A DNA stretch of 19,981 nt from a virus. Its lineage: Duplodnaviria; Heunggongvirae; Uroviricota; Caudoviricetes. A program made the translations under genes and the position numbers. The notes beneath the pieces were generated by a model. It searched no databases, had not been told where the DNA came from, and saw only the letters and a program-made list of their open reading frames with translations. The stretch lies in IMG/VR virus record IMGVR_UViG_2671180422_000005. The stretch is one strand, 5' to 3'. Shown in pieces: positions 1-19,981 of the stretch (position 1 is its first letter; the number at the start of each line of letters is the position of its first letter).

Positions 1-1284
1 TTACAGACTTCTGGAAGGTTGCGCAGCTCTTACAACACGCGGTTGATCTTCCGCAGCGTCTTCCAGCGCACTTAAATCACGGTCTTTCACCTCTGGCATT
101 TTCAGCGCAGAGATTAAACCAATCACTGAATATGCCATGATCATAATGGCGATCGGATACCAGGATTCCGTCATGGTGCAGAAAATACCCGCCAGGATAG
201 GACCAAAACCGGAAGCGATAAGACCACCAATTTCTTTAGAAATAGCCATCCGGGTAAAGCGGTTTTTACAGCCGAACATTTCTGCCATGGTAATGTTTTC
301 CAGAGCAAATAATCCCAGCACCGCACAGTTATGAATCACAATCAGTGCAACCATAATGGTGCTCGGGGCATAGCTTTTATCTACAATGATAGAAAGCATT
401 GGCCATGCCAGCACAATCGCGGAGGTATTCATAATAATATACGGGATCCGGCGACCAATTTTATCGGATAACCAACCAAGGAACGGAATGGTCATAAAGC
501 CGAGAATCGAACTGATCATCAATGCATCTGTTGGAATTGCTTTGTTAAACAATAACGTCTGCACTAAATAGCCTGCAAGGAAAGTCTGAATTAACCCGGA
601 GTTACCCGCCTGACCAAAACGCAGCCCTGTTGCCAGCCAGAAGGATTTGCTCTGGAACATGCTACCAGCAGGTGCAGGTTTTGCTGTCGGTTGGTTACTG
701 TCGTTAACCTTCTCAAAGACCGGGCTTTCTTTCAGATTCATACGCAACCAGATAGCAAAGACCATCACGACAACACTCGCCAGGAACGGTATACGCCATC
801 CCCACGCCAGCAGTTCCTCTTTACTGAGAATGAAGAACATAAAGGCCCAGATTGCCGTTGCGCTCAAGGTTCCGCAGTTAGTTCCCATAGCCACAAATGA
901 GGAGATAATTCCGCGCTTACCTTTTGGCGCATATTCCGCCAGCATCGTACCGGCACCGGAAATTTCCGCACCTGCACCCAACCCCTGAATAATACGCAAC
1001 GTCACCAGCAAGATGGGTGCAAAAACACCAATCTGTGCATAGGTCGGTAACACACCAATTAAGGTGGTACAGATCCCCATCATGGTGATGGTAATAAAGA
1101 GCACTTTTTTACGCCCTATTCTGTCGCCCATTTTGCCGAAAATAAATGCTCCGACAATACGCGCCACATAACCTGCACCGTAGGTTCCCATTGCCAGAAT
1201 TAACGCCATTGCCGTTGATGATTCAGGAAAAAATATTTCATGAAACACTAACGCTGCGCCGAGCGAATATAACTGGAAATCCAT
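1..1284 (-). CDS. ydfJ: MFS transporter, metabolite:H+ symporter family (shikimate/ShiA-like), N-terminally truncated by prophage insertion
   Basis: 427-aa ORF with 12-TM MFS character; begins MDFQLYSLGAALVF, which corresponds to the end of TM1 in ShiA-like transporters, so about 25-30 N-terminal residues are missing; ATG at 1282-1284, TAA at 1-3. Confidence 0.85.
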   Translation of the reverse strand: MDFQLYSLGAALVFHEIFFPESSTAMALILAMGTYGAGYVARIVGAFIFGKMGDRIGRKKVLFITITMMGICTTLIGVLPTYAQIGVFAPILLVTLRIIQGLGAGAEISGAGTMLAEYAPKGKRGIISSFVAMGTNCGTLSATAIWAFMFFILSKEELLAWGWRIPFLASVVVMVFAIWLRMNLKESPVFEKVNDSNQPTAKPAPAGSMFQSKSFWLATGLRFGQAGNSGLIQTFLAGYLVQTLLFNKAIPTDALMISSILGFMTIPFLGWLSDKIGRRIPYIIMNTSAIVLAWPMLSIIVDKSYAPSTIMVALIVIHNCAVLGLFALENITMAEMFGCKNRFTRMAISKEIGGLIASGFGPILAGIFCTMTESWYPIAIMIMAYSVIGLISALKMPEVKDRDLSALEDAAEDQPRVVRAAQPSRSL

Positions 1285-2070
1285 AATTCACAGGTGTTTT
1301 TTCCCATCCTGTGGTTTCCTTGGCGTTTTCTAGGTTTTTTCAGATAGTTGCATTTTTTTAAAAAGCATCCTAAGTTCGATCTCAGTGTCTATCTGGGGCC
1401 TATTTCTGTCCCATATATGCCCCAAAAAAACTCCCCAACAGATAAGTAGTTTTTTCATGGATTTATGCGTAAAATCAAGAACGGCTGGAAATCATTCAAT
1501 ACTCACACTATCGAAAAATTTACCAGCCAATCGCAGCACGTTCTTGCATAAGGCGTGTCTGCGGTTTTTCAACTATTCAGATACATCACTCCCATCACAT
1601 TCATTCCTCCGCATCAAAGGCATATAGGCTATATCACCTTGATATTTTTCTTTTTCAGATAAAAACTGTTATCTATGTATACTTTTAAACCCAATCCGTG
1701 TAGAGTCTCTGCATAAGATAGTTTGCAGTTGCCGCTTCAGCTTGCGCCATAAACCGCCTGATTTTTGCTGCCACCTGTTAGCATTCCTGTATACCTGAAA
1801 CGACAATGTTTATCTACGAACTTTAAGAACACCCAAGATAAAAATTGTCAACTATATCATATATAACACATTACTAATTCGAGGCTATATGAACAGCATA
1901 CTGATAATCACATCTCTCCTTATCATATTCAGCATTTTTAGTCATGCCCTAATAAAATTAGGGATTGGCATATCCAATAACCCAGACAAAACCGATGTAT
2001 AAGTCAACATATCCTGAATCAGACATACAATATCGCAATGAAAATCAATAATATTTTAAGGAATATCTTC

Positions 2071-2304
2071 ATGAAATCAAAAGACACCCTAAAGTGGTTC
2101 CCTGCGCAGCTTCCTGAAGTAAGAATTATCCTAGGGGATGCTGTAGTGGAAGTAGCAAAACAGGGAAGACCTATCAATACCAGAACATTGCTTGATTACA
2201 TTGAAGGAAACATAAAGAAAAAATCATGGCTGGATAACAAAGAATTATTACAAACAGCGATATCAGTTCTTAAAGACAACCAAAATTTAAATGGTAAAAT
2301 GTAA
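2071..2304 (+). CDS. ydfK: YdfK/YnaE-family cold-shock-induced small protein (77 aa)
   Basis: ATG at 2071 preceded by AAGGAA 7 nt upstream; product MKSKDTLKWFPAQLPEVRIILGD... matches the YdfK/YnaE family as recalled; about 0.7 kb AT-rich non-coding leader upstream. Confidence 0.8.
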   Translation: MKSKDTLKWFPAQLPEVRIILGDAVVEVAKQGRPINTRTLLDYIEGNIKKKSWLDNKELLQTAISVLKDNQNLNGKM

Positions 2305-2620
2305 TATAATAAACTTACTTTTTTATCATTTTTCCACTTTAACAACATTTTGCTCCACTTTTCCACGACCAAACAACTTGAAATCTGGTTAAAATAACAC
2401 GCAACACTATTCTTCTTCCTTGAGTCCGCCCGGAACTCGAAAAACAAACCGAGTTAAAGCCATTTTTCACAAAATCGATTTTGGGTCTCACCAAAATTAC
2501 GGGGTTGCATACGCATTCGTTTATTTTCGAACGTGTACATACAAATATGCACAAAAATAATCATAATTATTTTCTGAGATGCATTATGATATGAACACCA
2601 ATTTCGTATAGAGTCTCACT

Positions 2621-3211
2621 ATGTCTCAAATTTTTGCTTACTGTCGGATATCAACGCTGGATCAGACCACCGAAAATCAACGCCGGGAAATCGAAAGTGC
2701 AGGTTTTAAAATCAAACCTCAGCAAATAATCGAAGAACACATTAGCGGCTCAGCAGCAACCAGTGAGCGTCCTGGTTTTAACCGGTTGCTTGCTCGCCTG
2801 AAATGTGGTGATCAATTGATTGTGACAAAACTGGATCGCCTTGGTTGTAATGCAATGGATATCAGGAAAACAGTGGAACAACTGACCGAAACAGGTATCA
2901 GAGTGCATTGCTTAGCATTGGGGGGCATTGACCTGACCAGTCCAACAGGAAAAATGATGATGCAAGTAATTTCAGCAGTCGCTGAATTTGAACGAGACCT
3001 TTTACTTGAACGCACTCATTCCGGGATAGTAAGAGCCCGCGGCGCAGGGAAACGTTTTGGTCGACCACCTGTGTTAAATGAAGAACAGAAACAGGCGGTA
3101 TTCGAACGAATTAAGTCAGGTGTAAGTATAAGTGCCATTGCCCGGGAATTCAAAACCTCGCGGCAAACCATTTTAAGAGCCAAAGCAAAACTTCAGACAC
3201 CTGACATATAA
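2621..3211 (+). CDS. pinQ: Serine recombinase, DNA invertase of the Pin/Gin/Hin/Cin family
   Basis: 196 aa; N-terminal catalytic motif YCRISTLDQ (active-site Ser10), C-terminal HTH ([18 protein letters not shown]); sequence as recalled for PinQ/PinR. Confidence 0.9.
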
Positions 3212-3308
3212 AAAATAATCTCGGTGTGAGATGCTTTACGTCTTCCAAGCCCCCTTCCTTGCCGTAAATGGAAAGATACATCTAATTATAGAATTTATAT
3301 GTTTTACC

Positions 3309-3444
3309 CTACGGCAGTGCTGGCCATTCAATATCCTGTGCAGTTGACGTATCAACACGGTTCAGCAATACCCGATACTTTTTCCATGCTTCCAGCAACG
3401 AGATTTCTTCCTCCGTTGCAATTTCCAGATCTGCAGCATCCTGA
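3309..3444 (-). pseudogene. 3' remnant (about 45 codons) of a tail fiber assembly gene tfa, fused to gene A
   Basis: Minus-strand frame reads ...[43 protein letters not shown]-stop, the conserved C-terminus of lambdoid Tfa proteins; no upstream Tfa sequence remains. Confidence 0.55.
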
Positions 3445-5337
3445 ATCTGCCAGTGTTTTCTTGTTGGTTGCTGCACCATCCTCTTCCTGCAGGCTCGCCA
3501 GCAGTGCACTGAGATCCAGCTGCCAGCGGGAAATACTGATGCGCAGCGCCGCCAGCGCATAAACGAAGCAGTCGAGTGCCTCATTGCGTCGCTTTTTGCT
3601 GTCCCACAGTATTTTTTTCCTGCCATCCACCCATTTTTCGACCTGCTCTTCAGCAGTCAGCTGCTGCGCTTCGGTCAGATCAAAAATATCCGGGTTATTC
3701 GGGAAGTGAACGGCACCGGGAAGCGGTTCATCCCCTTCCGGCGTCAGTGTGAAGCGGTTATAAATCTGCTCTTTCGCGGTATCCGTACCGATTTCGGTAA
3801 GGTAAACCCCGTTTTTGTTTCGCTTACGTGGCATGCTGGCCACCGGCTTTCCGTAGACGGATGCCCCTTTAATGGGGATCACCCGGAACAGCCCATGTTT
3901 TTTCGAGCGTTCATACACAATGGTCGGGTCAATCCCGCCAGTATCCCAGCAGATACGGGATACCGACATTTCTGCACCATTCCGGCGGGTATAGGTTTTA
4001 TTGATGGCCTCATCCACACGCAGCAGCGTCTGTTCATCGTCGTGGCGACCCATAATAATCTGCCGGTCAATCAGCCAGCTTTCCTCACCCGGCCCCCATC
4101 CCCATACGCGCATTTCGTAGCGGTCCAGCTGGGAGTCGATACCGGCGGTCAGGTAAGCCACACGGTCAGGAACGGGCGCTGAATAATGCTCTTTCCGCTC
4201 CGCCATCACCTCAGCATCCGGACGTTCGCCGATTTTCGCTTCCCATGTCTCACCGAGCGTGGTGTTTACGAAGGTTTTACGTTTTCCCGTATCCCCTTTC
4301 GTTTTCATCCAGTCTTTGACAATCTGCACCCAGGTGGTGAACGGGCTGTACGCCGTCCAGATGTGAAAGGTCACGCTGTCCGGCGGCTCAATCTCTTCAC
4401 CGGATGACGAAAACCAGAGAATGCCATCACGGGTCCAGATCCCGGTCTTTTCGCAGATATAACGGGCATCAGTGAAGTCCAGCTCCTGCTGGCGGATGAC
4501 GCAGGCATTATGCTCGCAGAGATAAAACACGCTGGAGGGGTCATCCGGCGTCCATTTGAGGCCAAACGGCGTCTCTTTGTCGCCAAATTTAAGATACTGC
4601 TCCTCCCCGCAGTGCGGGCAGGCAACATGAAAACGCATAAAATGCAGGGATTCACTGGCTGCACGCTCAATCTGGCAGGTGCCTCTCACTTTGGGCGTGG
4701 AGCCACGGATGGACTTTGGCCAGACCGAGCCTTCAATACGTTTGTCGCCAAGGAACGTCGGAGAGCCTTCCTGTTCAATATCCTCATCAAAGGCAGCAAG
4801 TTCATCATAACCCGCCACATCCACCGACTTTTCACGGTAGTTTTTTGCCGCTTTACCGCCCAGGCACCAGAAGCCACGACCATTGGAAAAACGCTTCATA
4901 GTGAGCGTGTTATCCCGGTGCTTTTTGCCATACCACGGAGCCAGCGCCAGCAGCGACGGAATATCGCGGATGGTCGGCTCAACGTGGGTTTTCATAAAGT
5001 TCTCGGCATCACCATCCGTCGGCAACCAGATAAGGGTGTTGCGCTGCTTATGCTCTATAAAGTAGGCATAAACACCCAGCAGCATTTTGGAATAACCGAC
5101 ACGGGCAGACTTCACCACATTCACCTCACGGATGTAGTCGCTGCCCATCGCATTCATGATGGCCCGCTGAAAGGGCAGTGTTTCCCAGCGCCCTTCCTGG
5201 TATGCGGATTCTTTCGGGAGATAGTAATTAGCATCCGCCCATTCAACGGCGGTCTGTGGCTCCGGCCTGAACAGTGAGCGAAGCCCGGCGCGGACAAAAT
5301 GCCGCAGCCTGTTAACCTGACTGTTCGATATATTCAC
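3352..5337 (-). CDS. A: Terminase large subunit gpA-like, 661 aa, with the last about 10 lambda residues replaced by 30 unrelated residues
   Basis: Collinear with lambda gpA from [19 protein letters not shown] through ...[11 protein letters not shown]; diverges after coordinate 3445 into ...[30 protein letters not shown], which is tfa-derived DNA read in another frame. Confidence 0.9.
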
Positions 5338-5857
5338 TCAGCAACCCCGGTATCAGTTCATCCAGCGCGGCTGCTTTGTTCATGGCTTTGATGATATCCC
5401 GTTTCAGGAAATCAACATGTCGGTTTTCCAGTTCCGGAAAACGCCGCTGCACCGACAGGGGGATCCCGTCGAGAATACTGGCAATTTCACCTGCGATCCG
5501 CGACAGCACGAAAGTACAGAATGCGGTTTCCACCACTTCAGCGGAGTCTCTGGCATTTTTCAGCTCCTGTGCGTCGGCCTGCGCACGCGTAAGTCGATGG
5601 CGTTCGTACTCAATAGTCCCTGGCTGGAGATCTGTCTCGCTGGCCTGCCGCAGTTCTTCAACTTCCCGGCGCAGCTTTTCGTTCTCAATTTCAGCATCCC
5701 TTTCGGCATACCATCTTATAACGGCGGCAGAGTCATAAAGCACCTCATTACCCTTGCCACCGCCTCGCAGAACGGGCATTCCCTGTTCCTGCCAGTTCTG
5801 AATGGTACGGATACTCGCACCGAAAATGTCAGCCAGCTGCTTTTTGTTGACTTCCAT
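5312..5857 (-). CDS. nu1: Terminase small subunit Nu1 (181 aa)
   Basis: MEVNKKQLADIFGASIRTIQNWQEQGMPV... matches lambda Nu1 as recalled; 3' end overlaps the A start as in lambda; ATG at 5855-5857. Confidence 0.9.
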   Translation of the reverse strand: MEVNKKQLADIFGASIRTIQNWQEQGMPVLRGGGKGNEVLYDSAAVIRWYAERDAEIENEKLRREVEELRQASETDLQPGTIEYERHRLTRAQADAQELKNARDSAEVVETAFCTFVLSRIAGEIASILDGIPLSVQRRFPELENRHVDFLKRDIIKAMNKAAALDELIPGLLSEYIEQSG

Positions 5858-6034
5858 TGTTCATTCCACGGCCAAAAACAGAGAAAGGAAACGACAGAGG
5901 CCCAAAAGCTCGTTTTCAGCACCTGTCGTTTCCTTTCTTTTCAGGGGGTATTTTAAATAAAAACATTAAGTTACGACGAAGAAGAACGGAAATGCCTTAA
6001 ACCGGAAAATTTTCATAAATAGCGAAAACCCGCG
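5858..6034 (-). promoter_or_regulatory. cosB-like terminase binding region between cosN and the nu1 start
   Basis: Reverse complement reads CGCGGGTTTTCGCTATTTATGAAAATTTTCCGGTTTAAGGC...GAAAGGAAACGACAGGTGCTGAAA..., near-identical to the lambda left-end cosB region (R3-I1-R2-R1) as recalled. Confidence 0.7.
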
Positions 6035-6046
6035 AGGTCGCCGCCC
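6035..6046 (-). other. cosN, the 12-nt lambda cohesive-end sequence
   Basis: Plus strand AGGTCGCCGCCC is the reverse complement of GGGCGGCGACCT; flanked by CGTAACCTGTCGG, reverse complement of the lambda right end ...CCGACAGGTTACG. Confidence 0.85.
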
Positions 6047-6245
6047 CGTAACCTGTCGGATCGCCGGAAAGGACCCGCAAAATGATAATAATTATCATCT
6101 GCATGTCACAACGTGCATCTACGCCATCAAACCACGTCAAATAATCAATTATGACGCAGGTATCATATTAATTGATCTGCATCAACTTAACGTAAAAACA
6201 ACTTCAGACAATACAAATCAGCGACACTGAATACGGGGCAACCTC

Positions 6246-6479
6246 ATGTCAACGAAGAACAGAACCCGCAGAACAACAACCCGCAACATCCGCTTTCCTA
6301 ACCAAATGATTGAACAAATTAACATCGCTCTTGAGCAAAAAGGGTCCGGGAATTTCTCAGCCTGGGTCATTGAAGCCTGCCGCCGGAGACTGTGCTCAGA
6401 AAAAAGAGTTTCTTCTGAAGCAAACAAAGAAAAGAGTGACATTACTGAATTGCTCAGAAAACAGGTCAGACCAGATTGA
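6246..6479 (+). CDS. ynfO: Small ribbon-helix-helix (Arc/CopG-like) protein with basic N-terminal tail, YnfO/YlcI (DUF3950)-like
   Basis: 77 aa; RHH signature NIRFPNQMIEQINIALEQKGSGNFSAWVIEACRRRL (beta strand, helix, Gly turn, helix); ATG at 6246. Confidence 0.7.
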   Translation: MSTKNRTRRTTTRNIRFPNQMIEQINIALEQKGSGNFSAWVIEACRRRLCSEKRVSSEANKEKSDITELLRKQVRPD

Positions 6480-6536
6480 AGCAATTTAGATAATCGTGCA
6501 GACTACGCCCCCTCATATCACATGGAAGGTTTATCT

Positions 6537-6947
6537 ATGGATCAGGTAGTCATTTTTAAACAAATATTTGATAAAGTTCGAAACGATTTAAACTATCAAT
6601 GGTTTTATTCTGAGCTAAAACGTCACAATGTCTCACATTACATTTACTATTTAGCCACAGAGAATGTTCATATTGTATTAAAAAATGATAATACAGTGTT
6701 ATTAAAGGGCCTAAAAAACATTGTGTCTGTCAAATTTTCAAAGGATAGGCATCTTATAGAAACGACCTCTAATAAGCTGAAATCCAGAGAGATCACATTT
6801 CAGGAATACAGAAGAAACCTTGCTAAAGCAGGAGTTTTTCGGTGGGTTACAAATATCCACGAACAAAAAAGATATTACTATACCTTTGATAATTCATTAC
6901 TATTTACTGAAAGCATCCAGAAAACTACACAGATCTTACCACGCTAA
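6537..6947 (+). CDS. ydfO: DUF1398-family protein (YdfO/YbcV-like), 136 aa
   Basis: ORF 6522-6947; second ATG at 6537 has GGAAGG 8 nt upstream; 42 nt downstream of the RHH gene on the same strand. Confidence 0.75.
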
Positions 6948-7051
6948 ACCATAACGTCCGGCTTCTCTCACTCCTGAGCCGGACTGCATTGGTTTAATAA
7001 AAACCATCAACAATTGTGATTTAGATATTCGGAACCATTCAAATATAACAA

Positions 7052-7072
7052 AACCCCGTAAAAACGAGGTTT
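7052..7072 (-). terminator. Intrinsic terminator downstream of gnsB
   Basis: Minus-strand RNA AACCUCGU-UUUU-ACGGGGUU (8-bp stem with one G-U pair) followed by UUGUUAUAUUU. Confidence 0.5.
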
Positions 7073-7098
7073 ATGGATAAATTTTATTATTGAATACA

Positions 7099-7275
7099 TC
7101 AGATTAAATTAATCTTGACATCATAGCTTTCAAGACCCGTCATTTTTTCCCGTGCGGTAAACTGAATACTGGTAACTTCTTTCCCGGTCTTTTTCTTAAG
7201 TTCAATAATTTTTTTTGTTATATATTCAGAAATATCTGCTTCTGCTTTTGTTTTTAAGTTTTCAATATTCATCAT
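7099..7275 (-). CDS. gnsB: GnsA/GnsB-family small protein (58 aa)
   Basis: Below the ORF-track cutoff; hand translation MMNIENLKTKAEADISEYITKKIIELKKKTGKEVTSIQFTAREKMTGLESYDVKINLI; AAAAGAGGAA Shine-Dalgarno immediately upstream of the ATG at 7273-7275. Confidence 0.75.
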   Translation of the reverse strand: MMNIENLKTKAEADISEYITKKIIELKKKTGKEVTSIQFTAREKMTGLESYDVKINLI

Positions 7276-7443
7276 TTCCTCTTTTAGTCTGTTATGACTT
7301 TCCAGTTACACAGTAAGTCGATTATATGGTGCAAACGTGTAAAAGATAAGATGAAACATCGCAATAATCAACATACGATAGTCTAAATTTTACACAAACA
7401 GACAAAGAGAATTTTCCTGAATTATCAATGCAATAGCATCAAA

Positions 7444-7674
7444 TCAACTCAAGAGCCTTATTGCTGCTTCCAGAATTTCTTCTGAAGTAACATGTCGATC
7501 CGCGGCTACATAAATGACTTTATGATCTCCGGTCAGAGATGGAAACCCTGCGGCCATTACAGTAAGGTGTGTTTTTTCGCCATTTGGATATTCACGCATG
7601 ATGGTGTTAACTCCAGTCATCGCTGGCACTACCACTGCTGGTTCAGAGTTAAAAAAAACTATGATTTTTTTCAT
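7444..7674 (-). CDS. Hypothetical 76-aa protein between cspI and gnsB
   Basis: ORF-track frame 7444-7716 opens with TTG; the first ATG gives MKKIIVFFNSEPAVVVPAMTGVNTIMREYPNGEKTHL...; weak Shine-Dalgarno; sits where K-12 Qin has ynfN and the paralogous chromosomal locus has ymcE. Confidence 0.45.
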   Translation of the reverse strand: MKKIIVFFNSEPAVVVPAMTGVNTIMREYPNGEKTHLTVMAAGFPSLTGDHKVIYVAADRHVTSEEILEAAIRLLS

Positions 7675-7710
7675 GATGTTACCGTAGTATGTGAGTATCC
7701 ATCGAATAGA

Positions 7711-7738
7711 CACCAAGCAAAAAAGCTCCCGAAGGAGC
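7711..7738 (-). terminator. Candidate intrinsic terminator downstream of cspI
   Basis: Minus-strand GCUCC-UUCG-GGAGC hairpin followed by UUUUUUGCUUGG. Confidence 0.45.
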
Positions 7739-7945
7739 CTTCATTTTCACTTTTTTAAATCCAACGACAGACGGCTGGCATTTAAGTATTGTGAAATATT
7801 ATCAAATGTAATCATCATTGATTTACAAAAGATACATTTTGCCCCGAAAGGATTCATGTCAGAAACATCAAAAGATGATGTTCTATACTGGGAACCATGA
7901 CAACACGGGCATCTAAAGTGAATATGGTTTGTAATATTGTCTACC

Positions 7946-8158
7946 TCAAAGCGCCACTACATGAACAGCGGCAGGACCTTTAGGTCCGTTCTCAATACCA
8001 AATTCAACTTCCTGATTCTCAGTTAATGTTTTGAAATCGTTGCTCTGAATTGCTGAGAAATGGACAAACACATCTTTGCTGCCATCTTTCGGCGTGATGA
8101 AACCAAAACCTTTTTCAGGGTTAAACCATTTCACTAAACCAGTCATTTTGTTAGACAT
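7946..8158 (-). CDS. cspI: Cold shock protein CspI (CspA family, 70 aa)
   Basis: [53 protein letters not shown]... with RNP1/RNP2 motifs; long leader upstream typical of csp genes. Confidence 0.95.
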
Positions 8159-8520
8159 AATTATTACCTTTTGAAGAAATTAGCCCTTGGGCAGAATGGT
8201 CCGAAAAAAAATATCAGAGAGAAAAACCAACAAGGAAATCTCAAGAGGTACAAATAATAAAATTATAACAATGACTGCTTCAGATAAATTTGTAACAAAC
8301 CAGAACACCATTAACGCATGATTAACCACCCATAGCAAGGATTACTTTTGTAAAGAAAAACACAGCAATGAAAGAATAGCTTTATTTATTAATAAAACGT
8401 GTCATTCTGATTAAGACCTTTTATCTTACCCTTAAGATTTCAGGAATTTTGGCTCATGGAAGAGTCCTTTTTATTTAAATTTTACATTCCGCGATGTAAA
8501 TGTTCCGATTTAATATTACC

Positions 8521-9544
<1,024 letters not shown>

Positions 9545-9548
<4 letters not shown>

Positions 9549-9856
9549 AGATATTTATGATGAGGACGCTCGTGCTTATTGGCAGGATTTTCAATCTTAA
9601 AGGAGTACTGATGCTGCAGATAAGACTCAACTTTTTCTGACAATTTTTCTGCTACTTCCAGGAAGACTTGCCGGACGCTCCTTCTGGCTGCTGCCTCATA
9701 AAACTCCAGCGCAGCTCCTTCAACACGGTCCATGGCGACATCCAGGTCAAAAATTTCACCGTCAAAGCGTTCTTTGTCCTGTAAGGCTACAGTTACCGTA
9801 ACTTTATTCTCAAAATTACGGACTCCTTTCACAACCAGTTCATAGTCTTGAGTCAT
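9545..9856 (-). CDS. ydfR: DUF1327-family protein encoded between holin and endolysin
   Basis: 103-aa ORF MTQDYELVVKGVRNFENKVTV...; tightly packed between essQ stop (9861) and the endolysin start. Confidence 0.8.
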
Positions 9857-9860
9857 TGGA

Positions 9861-10076
9861 TTACTCTCCTCTCGCAGCCTTACGCCTGTCTTCTTTAATC
9901 TTGAAATAAAGATTTGTCAGATACGTCAGCAGGCCAAAAACCAGGCTACCCAGCACACCGATTGCAGCCCACTGTGACGGAGTTACTTTATCGAGTAACT
10001 GCAATGCCCAGAAACCAGCATTACCCGCCGATGTGCCATAGGCAACACCTGTTGTTAACTTATCCATTGATTTCAT
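9861..10076 (-). CDS. essQ: Holin with dual-start motif (71 aa from first Met)
   Basis: [28 protein letters not shown]... with two in-frame Met codons (10074-10076 and 10065-10067) separated by Lys-Ser; GGGGTGAGGA Shine-Dalgarno; charged C-terminal tail. Confidence 0.9.
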
Positions 10077-10295
10077 ATCCTCACCCCGATGTACACGGAT
10101 GGTGCAATATGTTTGAAAAGATCGGAGTCTACGGGGTAGTTTTGACAGCACACGTTGTTCTCAACGGCGCTAAAAAAACATACACATTAAAAATGTGGGT
10201 AATTATTTTGAAAGAAAGTCATATATAAAATAATAATACGAGAAATGTTTTCATATTTAGTGTACTGTATACGGCCATTTATACAGGAAAAGCCT

Positions 10296-10466
10296 ATGTC
10301 AGAACGTAAAAACTCAAAATCACGCCGTAATTATCTCGTTAAATGTTCCTGCCCAAACTGCACCCAAGAGTCAGAACACAGTTTTTCAAGAGTACAAAAA
10401 GGTGCCCTTTTGATCTGCCCTCATTGCAACAAAGTATTCCAGACAAATCTTAAAGCTGTAGCCTGA
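10296..10466 (+). CDS. ynfU: Small zinc-ribbon protein (56 aa), YnfU-like
   Basis: MSERKNSKSRRNYLVKCSCPNCTQESEHSFSRVQKGALLICPHCNKVFQTNLKAVA; two CxxC pairs; AGGAAA 5 nt upstream of the ATG; opposite strand to the surrounding late genes. Confidence 0.65.
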   Translation: MSERKNSKSRRNYLVKCSCPNCTQESEHSFSRVQKGALLICPHCNKVFQTNLKAVA

Positions 10467-10520
10467 TTGATTTTATTAGTAACAAGTATTTTTTATATTT
10501 TAATAATATATTTAAAGCAG

Positions 10521-10548
10521 ATAATAAAAAACCCGCCTGAGCGGGTTT
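10521..10548 (-). terminator. Intrinsic terminator between cspB and the lysis cassette (bidirectional hairpin)
   Basis: Plus strand AAAAAACCCGC-CTGA-GCGGGTTT; on the minus strand the stem is followed by UUUUUUAUUAU. Confidence 0.6.
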
Positions 10549-10829
10549 GAGATTGTGGTGCTTTTTGTGGGAGTCATCCACTTACGCACTTTGTTTTGCC
10601 ATGCCAGCAGTTAGCTTCTGCTGTAAAACTATTCATGCAGCAAACCTGCACTTCACCACAATGGTTAGCATACTTTTCCTGATTAAGATTTTGCCAAATA
10701 TGCTAGCCATTGTTTCATGTATTGGACCTCCTTACTTTTTATTAAAGAGATCCAATATTCACTACTCTGTCCGTATCTCTACTCAGGCATCAGCCTTCTT
10801 CGTTATCGTATACAGACGAGCGATGAATT

Positions 10830-11045
10830 TTAATCAGTAATGATGACATTTGCTGCTGCAGGACCTTTAGCACCACTCTCTATAGAGAAGGTAACCTTTT
10901 GACCTTCAAATAAGGTTCGATAATTATCATTCTGAATCGCAGAAAAATGCACAAACACATCTTTACTACCATCAACAGGAGAAATAAAGCCGAAACCTTT
11001 ATCAGCGTTAAACCATTTTACTAAACCAGTCATTTTATTTGACAT
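10830..11045 (-). CDS. cspB: Cold shock protein CspB (CspA family, 71 aa)
   Basis: [53 protein letters not shown]...; AAGGAA Shine-Dalgarno. Confidence 0.95.
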
Positions 11046-11345
11046 TCTACATTCCTTAACTTGAGCCTTTCGGCATAAATGGTTTGCATAACAGAAACGA
11101 CTTCGTACTTAATTGGAGAGACTCAAAGAAGGAATAAGTGAATAACACCTGAAATGAGAACTGCTTTAGTAAACTACTTCGTATATCGTCTGTTCTTCAA
11201 ACCGACGCAATCATTAACGCATAGTTGAACATATGAAGCAATGTTTATTTTAGACATCCAGCCATCTTCAACCCCATCAAAAAACTATAGCTTTCTTCAG
11301 GAACGTGTGTATAGTGCGCCAAGTTATCAGTATTAAGGAATTTTT

Positions 11346-11558
11346 TTGTCCCGTAAAATGACAGGAATTGTCAAAACCTTTGACGGCAAAAGCGGCAAGG
11401 GTCTTATCACCCCATCCGATGGTCGTATCGATGTCCAGCTTCATGTTTCAGCGCTCAATCTCCGCGATGCAGAAGAAATTACCACCGGATTACGCGTGGA
11501 ATTTTGCCGGATAAATGGTCTGCGTGGCCCTTCAGCTGCCAATGTTTACCTTTCATGA
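11346..11558 (+). CDS. cspF: CspA-family paralog CspF (70 aa), divergent from cspB
   Basis: [45 protein letters not shown]...; the frame opens with TTG at 11346. Confidence 0.85.
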
Positions 11559-11612
11559 GCTATATTAAAGCTTTAATTTCAGGCCCCATCGGATCACACA
11601 TGGAGAGTTTTT

Positions 11613-11702
11613 ATGAATAACCCCGTCTGTCTTGATGACTGGTTGATTGGCTTTAAAAGCTTATGCTGTACTTTGGCCGTAATAGCTCTGCTAATAATAT
11701 AA
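11613..11702 (+). CDS. Candidate 29-aa hydrophobic peptide ORF (unannotated)
   Basis: GGAGAG 5 nt upstream of ATG at 11613; hand translation [29 protein letters not shown] then TAA; not in the ORF track because of its length. Confidence 0.25.
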
Positions 11703-11844
11703 TAAGCAGACTCATTGTGTTTAGGGACATTGTACTGGAAGAAAACATTTTAAACATCAGGCAAATAACCAAGTCACCAGCTAAATAATAAGTTAACAGA
11801 CATGAGTCCCGGGATGAGATTCAACATTACCATTGCCCCATTTA

Positions 11845-11872
11845 AAGCACAAAACCCGCTCATCAGCGGGTT
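11845..11872 (-). terminator. tR'-like intrinsic terminator downstream of the Q gene
   Basis: Hairpin AACCCGCT-CATC-AGCGGGTT at 11853-11872; on the minus strand followed by UUUUGUGCUUUAAA. Confidence 0.55.
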
Positions 11873-11919
11873 TTCTACTTTTTCTTAACGTCGGGTATAC
11901 AAAGCCCATCGTTGAAAAA

Positions 11920-11948
11920 ATTTTATCCATATTTTTTGAAAAATGCAA
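11920..11948 (-). promoter_or_regulatory. Candidate PR'-like late promoter
   Basis: Minus strand reads TTGCAT, 17-nt spacer, TAAAAT (plus-strand complement at 11943-11948 and 11920-11925), about 40 nt upstream of the tR'-like hairpin. Confidence 0.4.
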
Positions 11949-11979
11949 ACATCATGTCGCCATCTTCAGCAAAAATCAT

Positions 11980-12732
11980 TTATCTCGTCACCTTCCTCAA
12001 TTGCGCTTCCGCGTATGCTTCTTCCTGCCAGCACTTTGTTACCAGTTTACCAATGACGTCCGCATACCCCTTATACCACTGATAATCGGTCAGGTCTGGT
12101 ACCAGCTTCTGGACATGACGTCGTGCCAGCGTGGTCGGTAAACGACTAAACCGGTTTCCATTACAACGCCCACAAATCTTATATACCGGTACGCCATGAA
12201 ACCGGGTTCTTTTTTCATCCAGAACAATCCCTTTACCCTTACACCCTCTGCACGCTGTGCTGGCTTCGCCCTTACCATGGCAATGCTGACATAGTTCCTT
12301 CACCCATTCTTCCTTGATTACAGATTCCCCGCGTCTGTAGTGTTTCACCACTTCGCGCAATACATTATAAAATCCCGTACCTGAACAATGCTCACAGCGA
12401 GCCTTACTTGCCGCAGACCTGGAGTAATCAGCAAAGGCAAAACTCACGAGGTAAGGAATAATCTGTAACCGGATTTCTTCACTCAATTTGTTCAATGTCG
12501 GGTTATCCAGTGCCATCGCGTAATTTAGCAGGCCTTCAATCGCAAACTGAGGGTCCTGAACACCAACTTTTGCCAGAAATAAGGCCAACCCAAGTGGTGC
12601 TTTCGACTGCACCATCCCCTGCGCTGCCATTACATCCGTAATTGTTAAACAACCGGTGCCTGTCGCTGGAGCGTCATCGCTCAATTTTGGAGATTTTGGG
12701 GAGTAATATTTTGGTAAGGCTTCAAGGTTCAT
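11980..12732 (-). CDS. quuQ: Late-gene antiterminator Q (250 aa)
   Basis: ATG at 12730-12732 (MNLEALPKYYSPKSPKL...); four CxxCxGxG repeats (CEHCSGTG, CQHCHGKG, CRGCKGKG, CGRCNGNR); sits directly upstream of the PR'/tR'-like module and lysis genes. Confidence 0.9.
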   Translation of the reverse strand: MNLEALPKYYSPKSPKLSDDAPATGTGCLTITDVMAAQGMVQSKAPLGLALFLAKVGVQDPQFAIEGLLNYAMALDNPTLNKLSEEIRLQIIPYLVSFAFADYSRSAASKARCEHCSGTGFYNVLREVVKHYRRGESVIKEEWVKELCQHCHGKGEASTACRGCKGKGIVLDEKRTRFHGVPVYKICGRCNGNRFSRLPTTLARRHVQKLVPDLTDYQWYKGYADVIGKLVTKCWQEEAYAEAQLRKVTR

Positions 12733-12745
12733 GCTCGTTCTCCAC

Positions 12746-13486
12746 TTACGCCAGTACGCCAATTGTCAGCGCGCGATCGATAAAACGAAATATCAGCTCC
12801 AGTTGGGAGCCATACTTATCTTCAAATGCCACTGTATCCGTATGCAGCTCGTTGTGATGCTTTCTGCACAAAGGCAACACAAAGAGATCATGTGCTTTTG
12901 TTCCCATTCCGCCCTGCCCGTGACCAATCAGATGATGCGGATCGTCGGCTGGCATACCGCAGCAAGCACACGGCTGTGTCTTAACCCAACGTGTGTATTT
13001 CTCCTTAACCCAGCGGCGACGTTTAGGCAGCTTCATGAAAGATTCCGGAGACTCTGGATCAACGGTGATGCTTACCACCGTCTTTTCCTGTGGTGATTTT
13101 TGTTGCTGGTGGGCGTAAGGCAACGGTGCAAGATTTTTTGTGCGTTGTTTCAATATGCTGGTGGCGGTCTGCTCTCCCGGTACGATGTCGCTTTCGCGGT
13201 ACACCGAGCAGATTTTTTCCGCTGGTAATCCCAGCGAACGACGCGATACAGCCTCAGGTAGTGCATCCACCACCTGATTGCAGACCGCCCACCAGGATAA
13301 TTCAGCCAAAGATAATTCCCGCTCCTGCGTACCGCTTATTGCGTGACGGATGACGTCAATCACCCATGCTGTCAGATTTTGTTGAGCAAGCAGCTCCAGT
13401 GATTCCGATGTCTGGTCACGCAGTTGGTTGTCGCAGTGCCAGCACAACACCATTGCGCCGGTATTCATCATAAACTTTGGGATCAT
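12746..13486 (-). CDS. ydfU: DUF968-family protein with HNH-like Cys/His motif
   Basis: 246-aa ORF; C-terminal CACCG...DPHHLIGHG...LPLCRKHHNELH; ATG at 13486 has GGGGAG upstream but lies 71 nt inside dicC; shorter than the K-12 YdfU length I recall. Confidence 0.75.
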   Translation of the reverse strand: MIPKFMMNTGAMVLCWHCDNQLRDQTSESLELLAQQNLTAWVIDVIRHAISGTQERELSLAELSWWAVCNQVVDALPEAVSRRSLGLPAEKICSVYRESDIVPGEQTATSILKQRTKNLAPLPYAHQQQKSPQEKTVVSITVDPESPESFMKLPKRRRWVKEKYTRWVKTQPCACCGMPADDPHHLIGHGQGGMGTKAHDLFVLPLCRKHHNELHTDTVAFEDKYGSQLELIFRFIDRALTIGVLA

Positions 13487-15174: not shown

Positions 15175-15232
15175 TTTCTGGTGACGTTTGGCGGTATCAG
15201 TTTTACTCCGTGACTGCTCTGCCGCCCTTTTT
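15175..15232 (+). ncRNA. dicF: DicF small RNA (Hfq-dependent inhibitor of ftsZ translation), processed from the dicB-operon transcript
   Basis: TTTCTGGTGACGTTTGGCGGTATCAGTTTTACTCCGTGACTGCTCTGCCGCCCTTTTT matches the DicF sequence as recalled; ends in a GGCGG/CCGCC stem plus U5 terminator; mature 5' end is uncertain by a few nt. Confidence 0.8.
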
Positions 15233-18700: not shown

Positions 18701-19981
18701 ATGAAATATCCGACAGGCGTGGAAAACCATGGAGGGAAATTACGTATCTGGTTTGTTTATAAAGACGTAAGAGTCAGGGAAAATCTGGGGGTTCCTGACA
18801 CAGCAAAAAACAGGCGCGTTGCAGGTGAACTACGCTCCTCTGTTTGTTACGCAATAAAAACTGGTGTTTTCGACTATGCAAAACAGTTTCCCTCCTCACG
18901 CAATCTGGAAAAATTTGGTGAGGCCCGACAAGATTTAACCATAAAAGAACTGGCTGAAAAATTTCTGGCACTGAAAGAAACTGAAGTCGCCAAAACATCA
19001 CTCAACACATACCGTGCCGTCATCAAAAATATCCTGAGCATAATCGGTGAAAAAAATCTTGCCTCATCGATTAATAAAGAAAAATTACTGGAGGTTCGTA
19101 AAGAGTTACTGACTGGATACCAGATCCCCAAAAGTAACTATATTGTTACACAACCAGGGAGATCGGCTGTAACTGTAAATAATTACATGACAAATCTTAA
19201 CGCCGTGTTCCAGTTTGGTGTTGATAACGGTTACCTGGCAGATAATCCGTTTAAGGGGATCTCGCCATTAAAGGAATCAAGAACCATTCCGGATCCTCTT
19301 TCGCGGGAAGAATTTATCCGTCTTATCGATGCGTGCAGAAATCAGCAAGCAAAAAATTTATGGTGTGTTTCTGTTTATACTGGAGTTCGCCCTGGTGAGC
19401 TGTGTGCACTTGGATGGGAGGACATAGATCTGAAAAATGGAACAATGATGATCAGGAGAAATTTAGCAAAAGACCGTTTCACGGTACCAAAAACACAGGC
19501 GGGAACCAATCGGGTCATTCATCTTATTAAGCCAGCAATCGACGCTCTCCGGAGTCAGATGACATTAACGAGACTGAGCAAAGAGCATATCATTGATGTT
19601 CACCTCAGAGAGTATGGCAGAACAGAAAAACAAAAATGCACCTTTGTTTTTCAACCTGAAGTGTCAGCGAGAGTAAAAAATTATGGTGACCATTTTACCG
19701 TTGACTCAATAAGGCAGATGTGGGACGCAGCGATAAAACGTGCCGGACTCCGCCATCGAAAATCATATCAGTCGAGACATACTTATGCCTGCTGGTCGCT
19801 GACAGCTGGTGCTAACCCGGCATTTATAGCAAACCAGATGGGCCATGCAGATGCGCAAATGGTATTTCAGGTATACGGAAAATGGATGTCTGAAAACAAT
19901 AATGCACAGGTAGCTTTGTTAAATACACAGTTAAGCGAGTTTGCCCCAACCATGCCCCATAACGAAGCAATGAAAAATTAA
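18701..19981 (+). CDS. intQ: Tyrosine recombinase, phage integrase (426 aa from ATG 18701), apparently full length
   Basis: N-terminal MKYPTGVENHGGKLRIWF, the type recalled for Rac IntR; box I TGVRPGELCALGWEDIDL, box II SRHTYACWSLTAGANPAFIANQMGHADAQMVFQVYGKW with the presumed catalytic Tyr; stop TAA at 19979-19981. Confidence 0.9.
   Translation: MKYPTGVENHGGKLRIWFVYKDVRVRENLGVPDTAKNRRVAGELRSSVCYAIKTGVFDYAKQFPSSRNLEKFGEARQDLTIKELAEKFLALKETEVAKTSLNTYRAVIKNILSIIGEKNLASSINKEKLLEVRKELLTGYQIPKSNYIVTQPGRSAVTVNNYMTNLNAVFQFGVDNGYLADNPFKGISPLKESRTIPDPLSREEFIRLIDACRNQQAKNLWCVSVYTGVRPGELCALGWEDIDLKNGTMMIRRNLAKDRFTVPKTQAGTNRVIHLIKPAIDALRSQMTLTRLSKEHIIDVHLREYGRTEKQKCTFVFQPEVSARVKNYGDHFTVDSIRQMWDAAIKRAGLRHRKSYQSRHTYACWSLTAGANPAFIANQMGHADAQMVFQVYGKWMSENNNAQVALLNTQLSEFAPTMPHNEAMKN

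Follow-up and report, generated by a model that had tools for sequence, protein, structure and literature searches.

The stretch of DNA analysed here, referred to as the window, is the complete 19,981-nt virus record IMGVR_UViG_2671180422_000005, which is assigned to Caudoviricetes. It is a copy of Qin, the cryptic lambdoid prophage of E. coli, and is collinear with the annotated Qin loci of many strains. The sequence belongs between ydfJ' and rspB, contains the expected gene set (pinQ, nohA, cspI/B/F, dicA/B/C/DicF, exo, xis and int), and matches Qin collinearly at 100% and 99.9% identity. It opens at position 1 with the stop codon of ydfJ', which is truncated, and closes at position 19981 with the integrase stop codon; the record has apparently been cut on gene boundaries. 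Rfam matches to the DicF sRNA and to two cspA-type thermoregulator leaders located upstream of cspI and cspB (15176-15227, 7919-8304 and 10814-11206) are part of the normal content of Qin.

The feature of interest is a junction between the gene for the terminase large subunit, A, and the 3' end of the tail fiber assembly gene tfaQ, and the features surrounding it are listed in Table 1. The serine recombinase gene pinQ (window 2621-3211; L023 5410-6000) is convergent with the tfaQ remnant, and all Qin variants examined have an intact copy of it, as does the live phage mEp460_ev081. The spacer that follows is 100% identical to that of K-12 and of the phages Kati, mEp460_ev081 and PhiR34_1. The remnant DNA is likewise 100% identical to tfaQ and to the tfa genes of live phages, and its 45 amino acids align with positions 86-130 of the 131 positions of Pfam Caudo_TAP (E = 8.6e-21). 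However, a complete Caudo_TAP open reading frame is not present, as the frame upstream of 3445 enters out-of-frame A sequence, and this piece of tfa is a fragment rather than a gene.

Table 1. Positions of the features around the A/tfaQ junction in the window.
Feature	Position	Strand	Description
pinQ, serine recombinase (invertase family)	2621..3211	+	Intact 196-aa ORF; Pfam Resolvase and HTH_7; 100% to K-12 pinQ
pinQ-tfaQ intergenic spacer	3212..3308	.	Unchanged relative to Qin and mEp460-type phages
tfaQ 3' remnant	3309..3445	-	137 nt, comprising the last 44 codons, 2 nt and the stop; own start codon absent
Deletion junction	3444..3445	.	2-nt overlap AA common to both parents; three-way alignments with the parents
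30 new C-terminal codons of chimeric gpA	3355..3444	-	tfaQ DNA in the wrong frame; TGA stop at 3352-3354
Chimeric terminase large subunit gene A	3352..5337	-	661 aa, gpA residues 1-631 plus 30 new
nohA, Nu1 terminase small subunit	5312..5857	-	Intact, 181 aa; Pfam Phage_Nu1, E = 2e-101
cos region	5858..6246	-	Alignment to circularised lambda cos
Cohesive-end 12-nt sequence	6035-6046	-	GGGCGGCGACCT

The two sides of the junction have clearly separable parentage. BLAST comparisons assign window 1-3445 to the pinQ-tfaQ end of Qin, with 100% identity to WP2-S18 and 99.94% to K-12, and window 3444-6046, comprising gene A, Nu1 (nohA) and cos, to lambda 2604-1, with 98.2% identity. The nohA product differs from lambda Nu1 at three amino acids, and the cosB and cosQ sides of the cohesive end are nearly identical to those of lambda. 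The chimeric protein stays in register with lambda gpA, a protein of 641 residues, through D631; over this length 4 residues are substituted and 26 codons differ synonymously. The junction base on the A side is nucleotide 1894 of the gene, the first base of codon 632. From this point the fusion continues into tfaQ DNA in a frame offset by 1 from that of the remnant, and the two frames stop at 3352 and 3309, respectively. The 59-mer that spans the junction is CCGTTGCAATTTCCAGATCTGCAGCATCCTGAATCTGCCAGTGTTTTCTTGTTGGTTGC. Uptake of A from lambda by recombination was considered and set aside: lambda identity is 98.2%, as compared with 99.99% to the Qin prophage of strain MLI105 and 99.7% to that of strain RM14721, and the A segment is therefore native Qin DNA.

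These comparisons confirm, to the base, what an initial annotation, made from the letters of the window, had observed. It had described A as lambda-like up to ...NKKTLAD at 3445 and as switching abruptly thereafter, and both the BLAST split and a base-by-base view place the change at exactly this base. The 30 novel C-terminal residues that it had counted are those found by translation against lambda gpA. Its reading of the adjoining DNA as a Tfa C-terminus in another frame agrees with the Caudo_TAP match, and the chance similarity that it had named as an alternative is answered by the 100% nucleotide identity to tfaQ. The microhomology that it had suggested looking for near 3440-3450 amounts to the dinucleotide AA, shared by the parents at 3444-3445.

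The fusion leaves the two Pfam domains of the terminase intact. The ATPase domain of gpA (PF05876, GpA_ATPase) is recognized at residues 47-285 (E = 2.3e-50) and the cos-cleaving endonuclease domain (PF20454, GpA_nuclease) at residues 322-600 (E = 1.8e-74). The prohead- and portal-binding tail is missing, in that residues 632-641 (YARALSGEDE) have been replaced by 30 unrelated residues; the loss thus concerns the last 10 residues of gpA and not a large C-terminal region. According to PMC4856287, which credits the data to Sippy & Feiss (1992) and Yeo & Feiss (1995), the terminase of the lambda mutant Aam42, whose gpA lacks the last 5 residues, still nicks cos and assembles Complex I, but its binding to the portal and to proheads is lost. 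Aam42 resembles the present allele in that the loss is limited to the extreme C-terminus of gpA and spares the ATPase and nuclease domains; it differs in being a nonsense mutation that removes 5 residues, whereas the window contains a natural prophage deletion in which 10 residues are exchanged for 30 unrelated ones. Because the loss of as few as 5 residues has this effect, the 661-aa gpA should be able to bind and cut cos but not to dock on proheads, if the late operon is ever expressed, as the initial annotation had also anticipated. The head genes are gone and the prophage encodes no proheads of its own, so that such a docking defect would matter only when a helper phage supplies them.

The A/tfaQ fusion is a rare natural allele and no artefact. 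No record among 5,426 complete E. coli genomes covers 80% or more of a 701-bp junction probe, neither the junction nor a homologue of the 661-aa protein occurs in 50,697 phage records, and an exact scan of the GTDB species representatives for the junction returned nothing; the full-length homologues in intact phages that would have spoken against the initial annotation are accordingly missing from the phage records and the complete E. coli genomes. This absence from every complete genome is what might be expected if two lambdoid fragments had been wrongly joined during assembly or scaffolding. However, the exact 661-aa protein is encoded, always with the same neighbours, by at least 12 contigs assembled from samples independent of one another; they stem from two NCBI draft assemblies (one with a 300-kb contig), a metagenome scaffold of ENA and a number of Logan run assemblies, one carrier strain being GCA_043677115.1, and the longer contigs are 99.7-100% identical to the window and collinear with it over up to 15 kb. 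Since an identical junction and chimeric protein have been assembled from different sources in the same context, a joining error can be given practically no credence. The sequence cluster that contains the 661-aa protein has 14,868 members with a typical length of 641 aa.

What has been lost from the window is apparent from strain RM14721, in which the same locus (our locus L016) is occupied by a full-length Qin. In this prophage gpA has 641 aa, and all of the lambda head and tail genes lie between A and stf, in the order nohA, A, W, B, C, D, E, FI, FII, Z, U, V, G, T, H, M, L, K, I, J, lom, stf, tfaQ, pinQ. The window equals the RM14721 Qin minus 20,581 bp (L016 3503-24081), from W through most of tfaQ, and the same interval amounts to 19,807 bp in lambda coordinates, in agreement with the loss of about 20 kb estimated initially. 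The genes removed are the W to J block, lom and stf, together with 77% of tfaQ. Because the RM14721 Qin holds the whole head and tail block between A and tfaQ, the proposal that this entire region was removed is right. RM14721 and the live phage mEp460_ev081 agree with the window in gene order and are nearly identical to it in sequence (99.7-99.9%), with the layout exo-xis-int / ydfK-pin-tfa-stf-lom-J and a gpA of 641 aa; they differ from it in keeping the 20.6 kb of morphogenetic genes.

The window allele is one of a number of Qin deletions, which are summarized in Table 2. Like the window, the other alleles join a breakpoint in Nu1 or A to one in tfa, stf, lom or J, and those of EC556 and 5735 also fuse A directly to tfaQ. 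Each nevertheless has its own endpoints, and their overlaps mostly contain TA as opposed to the AA of the window, which retains more of A than any other allele except that of MLI105. The K-12 Qin occupies the same locus (ydfJ'...int), has the same pinQ/tfaQ 3' end (99.94%), the same cos/nohA side and the same lysis and csp genes, and has also lost the head and tail block. It differs in that A is wholly lost and tfaQ is kept along with part of stfQ, whereas the window keeps A 1-631 and 137 nt of tfaQ; neither of these two alleles can be derived from the other. The deleted core common to all Qin alleles examined is L016 9551-21937, which begins within J and takes in most of C. On the cos side, the endpoint falls in A or Nu1 in 10 of 11 alleles, rather than in W, B or C, and this clustering hints at selection or a regional preference. 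The 601-aa A-Stf reading frame (L006 3884-5689, L017 and L018, for 2015-01-466, XJ6.2 and ABW_A32) is annotated in RefSeq as an intact terminase large subunit.

Table 2. Junctions of other Qin deletion alleles and the sequence shared by the joined parents.
Strain	Junction	Overlap
K-12	Nu1 end / stf	TA
WP2-S18	A519 / stf	TA
2015-01-466, XJ6.2, ABW_A32	In-frame A-Stf fusion, 601 aa	8 bp, CGTATCCC
MLI105	A636 / lom'	A (1 nt)
P15-25	A494 / stf	TA
N61	A494 / inverted C'-B-W-A' / stf	TA at both joints
EC556	A / tfaQ	ATA
5735	A / tfaQ	AATA
B-1109	stf / J' / Nu1'	ATA and TG
19SZHZ713Rt	Nu1' / J'	GCAG

The junction is very probably a scar of Qin decay at the ydfJ locus, produced by illegitimate, homology-independent recombination that fused A to the last 137 nt of tfaQ. 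The parents share at most 2 nt at the breakpoints, and recombination at this AA overlap would have joined nucleotide 1894 of A to the end of tfaQ. The best-supported mechanism, which we infer from the parental sequences, would be RecA-independent illegitimate recombination at minimal microhomology, and the simplest route would be one deletion. The scar itself would then be a neutral or mildly selected step in the decay of the prophage, not a functional module.

Whether the head and tail genes left in one event, as the initial annotation had assumed, is less certain than the fact that they are gone, and a single event cannot be demonstrated, because an A636/lom' intermediate such as that of MLI105 could have been the precursor. 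In this alternative, a deletion of about 16.7 kb would first have fused A codon 636 to lom', and a nested deletion of 3,838 bp would then have taken lom', stf and the greater part of tfaQ, together with the final 15 nt of what was left of A. The Qin of MLI105 matches window 1-3445 at 100% identity and window 3444-13463 at 99.99%, and it retains A codons 632-636, which are gone from the window. The junctions of K-12, WP2 and the 466 type can likewise be derived from an MLI105-like parent, their stf remnants being 100% identical, and the total number of events over these alleles then equals the count for independent deletions. However, a single one of the 5,426 complete genomes has the MLI105 junction, and MLI105 has itself lost dicC-dicA-ydfABC-DicF, which the window keeps, so that it is not the direct ancestor; moreover, a full-length Qin exists and makes the one-step route equally available. 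The nested route is accordingly a possible but tentative reading. An MLI105-type junction as the common ancestral allele is neither confirmed nor excluded, and a single deletion is slightly preferred, since the full-length parent exists and one event suffices for this lineage.

The proximity of pinQ, 230 bp from the junction, raises the question of an enzymatic origin, since serine recombinases, too, produce overlaps of 2 nt. The crossover site of the Hin/Gin/Cin/Pin recombinases is a 26-bp imperfect palindrome, TTMTCNNAAACC-NN-GGTTTNNGAKAA, around a 2-bp crossover. Neither breakpoint has a pix-like site: the two parents match the Hin/Gin/Cin/Pin consensus at 6 of 20 and 3 of 20 positions, as compared with a random median of about 5. 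Deletion by Pin was therefore rejected for the A/tfaQ junction, as both a scan for AAACC-NN-GGTTT-like sequences and scoring against the 26-bp consensus show no resemblance, and the lack of such a site points to illegitimate recombination. No invertible segment was found in Qin and no good Hin-family crossover site either, the best pix-like candidate in Qin 2600-26500 matching 15 of 20 positions.

The remaining Qin junctions are less easily dismissed as random. Independent junctions were mapped on the RM14721 locus (L016 itself and loci L001, L003-L006, L014, L015, L019, L020 and L022), and four of them (466, 5735, N61 Q/rem and B-1109 J/Nu1) were read by eye, because nearby SNPs defeat automated overlap calling. 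Of the 16 junctions with an overlap of at least 2 nt, 12 contain TA, as opposed to 4% for random position pairs; seven are exactly TA and the others are TAG, ATA, ATA, AATA and CGTATCCC. In nearly every TA event, one partner reads (C/G)GATA or TATC(C/G). Furthermore, certain sites recur: the TA at A codon 494 (lambda 2193-2194; L016 24492-24493) was used at both joints of the N61 inversion and in the P15-25 deletion, the stf site at L016 4851 in WP2-S18 and B-1109, and the tfaQ site at L016 3810 in EC556 and 5735. Such re-use of breakpoints with different partners is unexpected under random illegitimate recombination. The 58-bp difference between EC556 and 5735 could reflect secondary slippage between AATA repeats. 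In N61 (L004 4641-7196), A(494-641)-W-B-C'(1-110) lies in inverted orientation within Qin with TA at both joints, and the exchange at the gene A site neither lost nor gained a base; this structure looks like a conservative exchange combined with a 17-kb deletion.

The TA/GATA signature suggests that the Qin deletions are not all products of random slippage or end-joining. One could imagine that the deletions and inversions stem from a strand-exchanging activity that works at a 2-nt TA next to GATA or TATC and re-uses sites with different partners, and this proposal is rather unlikely as it stands, though worth stating. If true, the behaviour would be formally like that of a low-specificity serine recombinase or a transposase, and the AA junction of the window, with its A-side parent TAATCT, would have arisen by the same process at an off-consensus site. 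Topoisomerase I cleaves at a motif with C at -4 and the cut at T|A (PMC9352719). This rule is not convincing as the cause of the TA bias, as only about 13 of the 20 parental sites fit it by manual count. A search of the literature on TA-biased prophage deletions and on Qin structure found nothing relevant.

For the window itself, a sequence-preferring enzyme with a 2-nt stagger, either PinQ acting on pseudo-sites or another, is a distinctly unlikely author of the deletion. Such an origin would account for an overlap of exactly 2 nt, would place the event beside the TA junctions with their re-used breakpoints and the N61 inversion, in which no base was lost or gained, and would fit the A-side parent, TAATCT, which is close to the recurrent TATC(C/G). 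However, the window junction is AA and not a clear member of the TA class, the consensus comparisons above speak against a Pin-type site in either parent or elsewhere in Qin, topoisomerase I fits too few of the sites, and no known E. coli enzyme of such specificity was identified. Illegitimate recombination at the AA dinucleotide is thus retained as the preferred reading for this junction.

Taken alone, the junction represents routine prophage decay, one new allele of a long-known cryptic prophage. It is at the same time the natural equivalent of a classical mutant of the lambda terminase, in which cos, Nu1 and a predicted docking-defective gpA have been left in the chromosome. The wider set has further uses: at least 11 junction types in near-identical Qin backgrounds, all with the same head-tail core lost and with a known full-length parent, constitute a natural deletion series from which the rate and mechanism of prophage dismantling could be studied. 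In addition, the TA/GATA bias and the re-use of breakpoints would merit a dedicated study, if they hold up.

Finally, the window has a second lineage-specific deletion at 13459-13463, where a truncated ydfU is joined to the dicC side with an overlap of exactly TA; the right-hand parent reads CGATA. Relative to an RM14721-type Qin, 9.8 kb is gone, including rem, hokD, relBE, ydfV, flxA, ydfW, IS remnants, replication genes and ydaT. This ydfU/dicC junction is present in none of the complete Qin genomes examined, and the draft genomes with the A/tfaQ junction have it as well.
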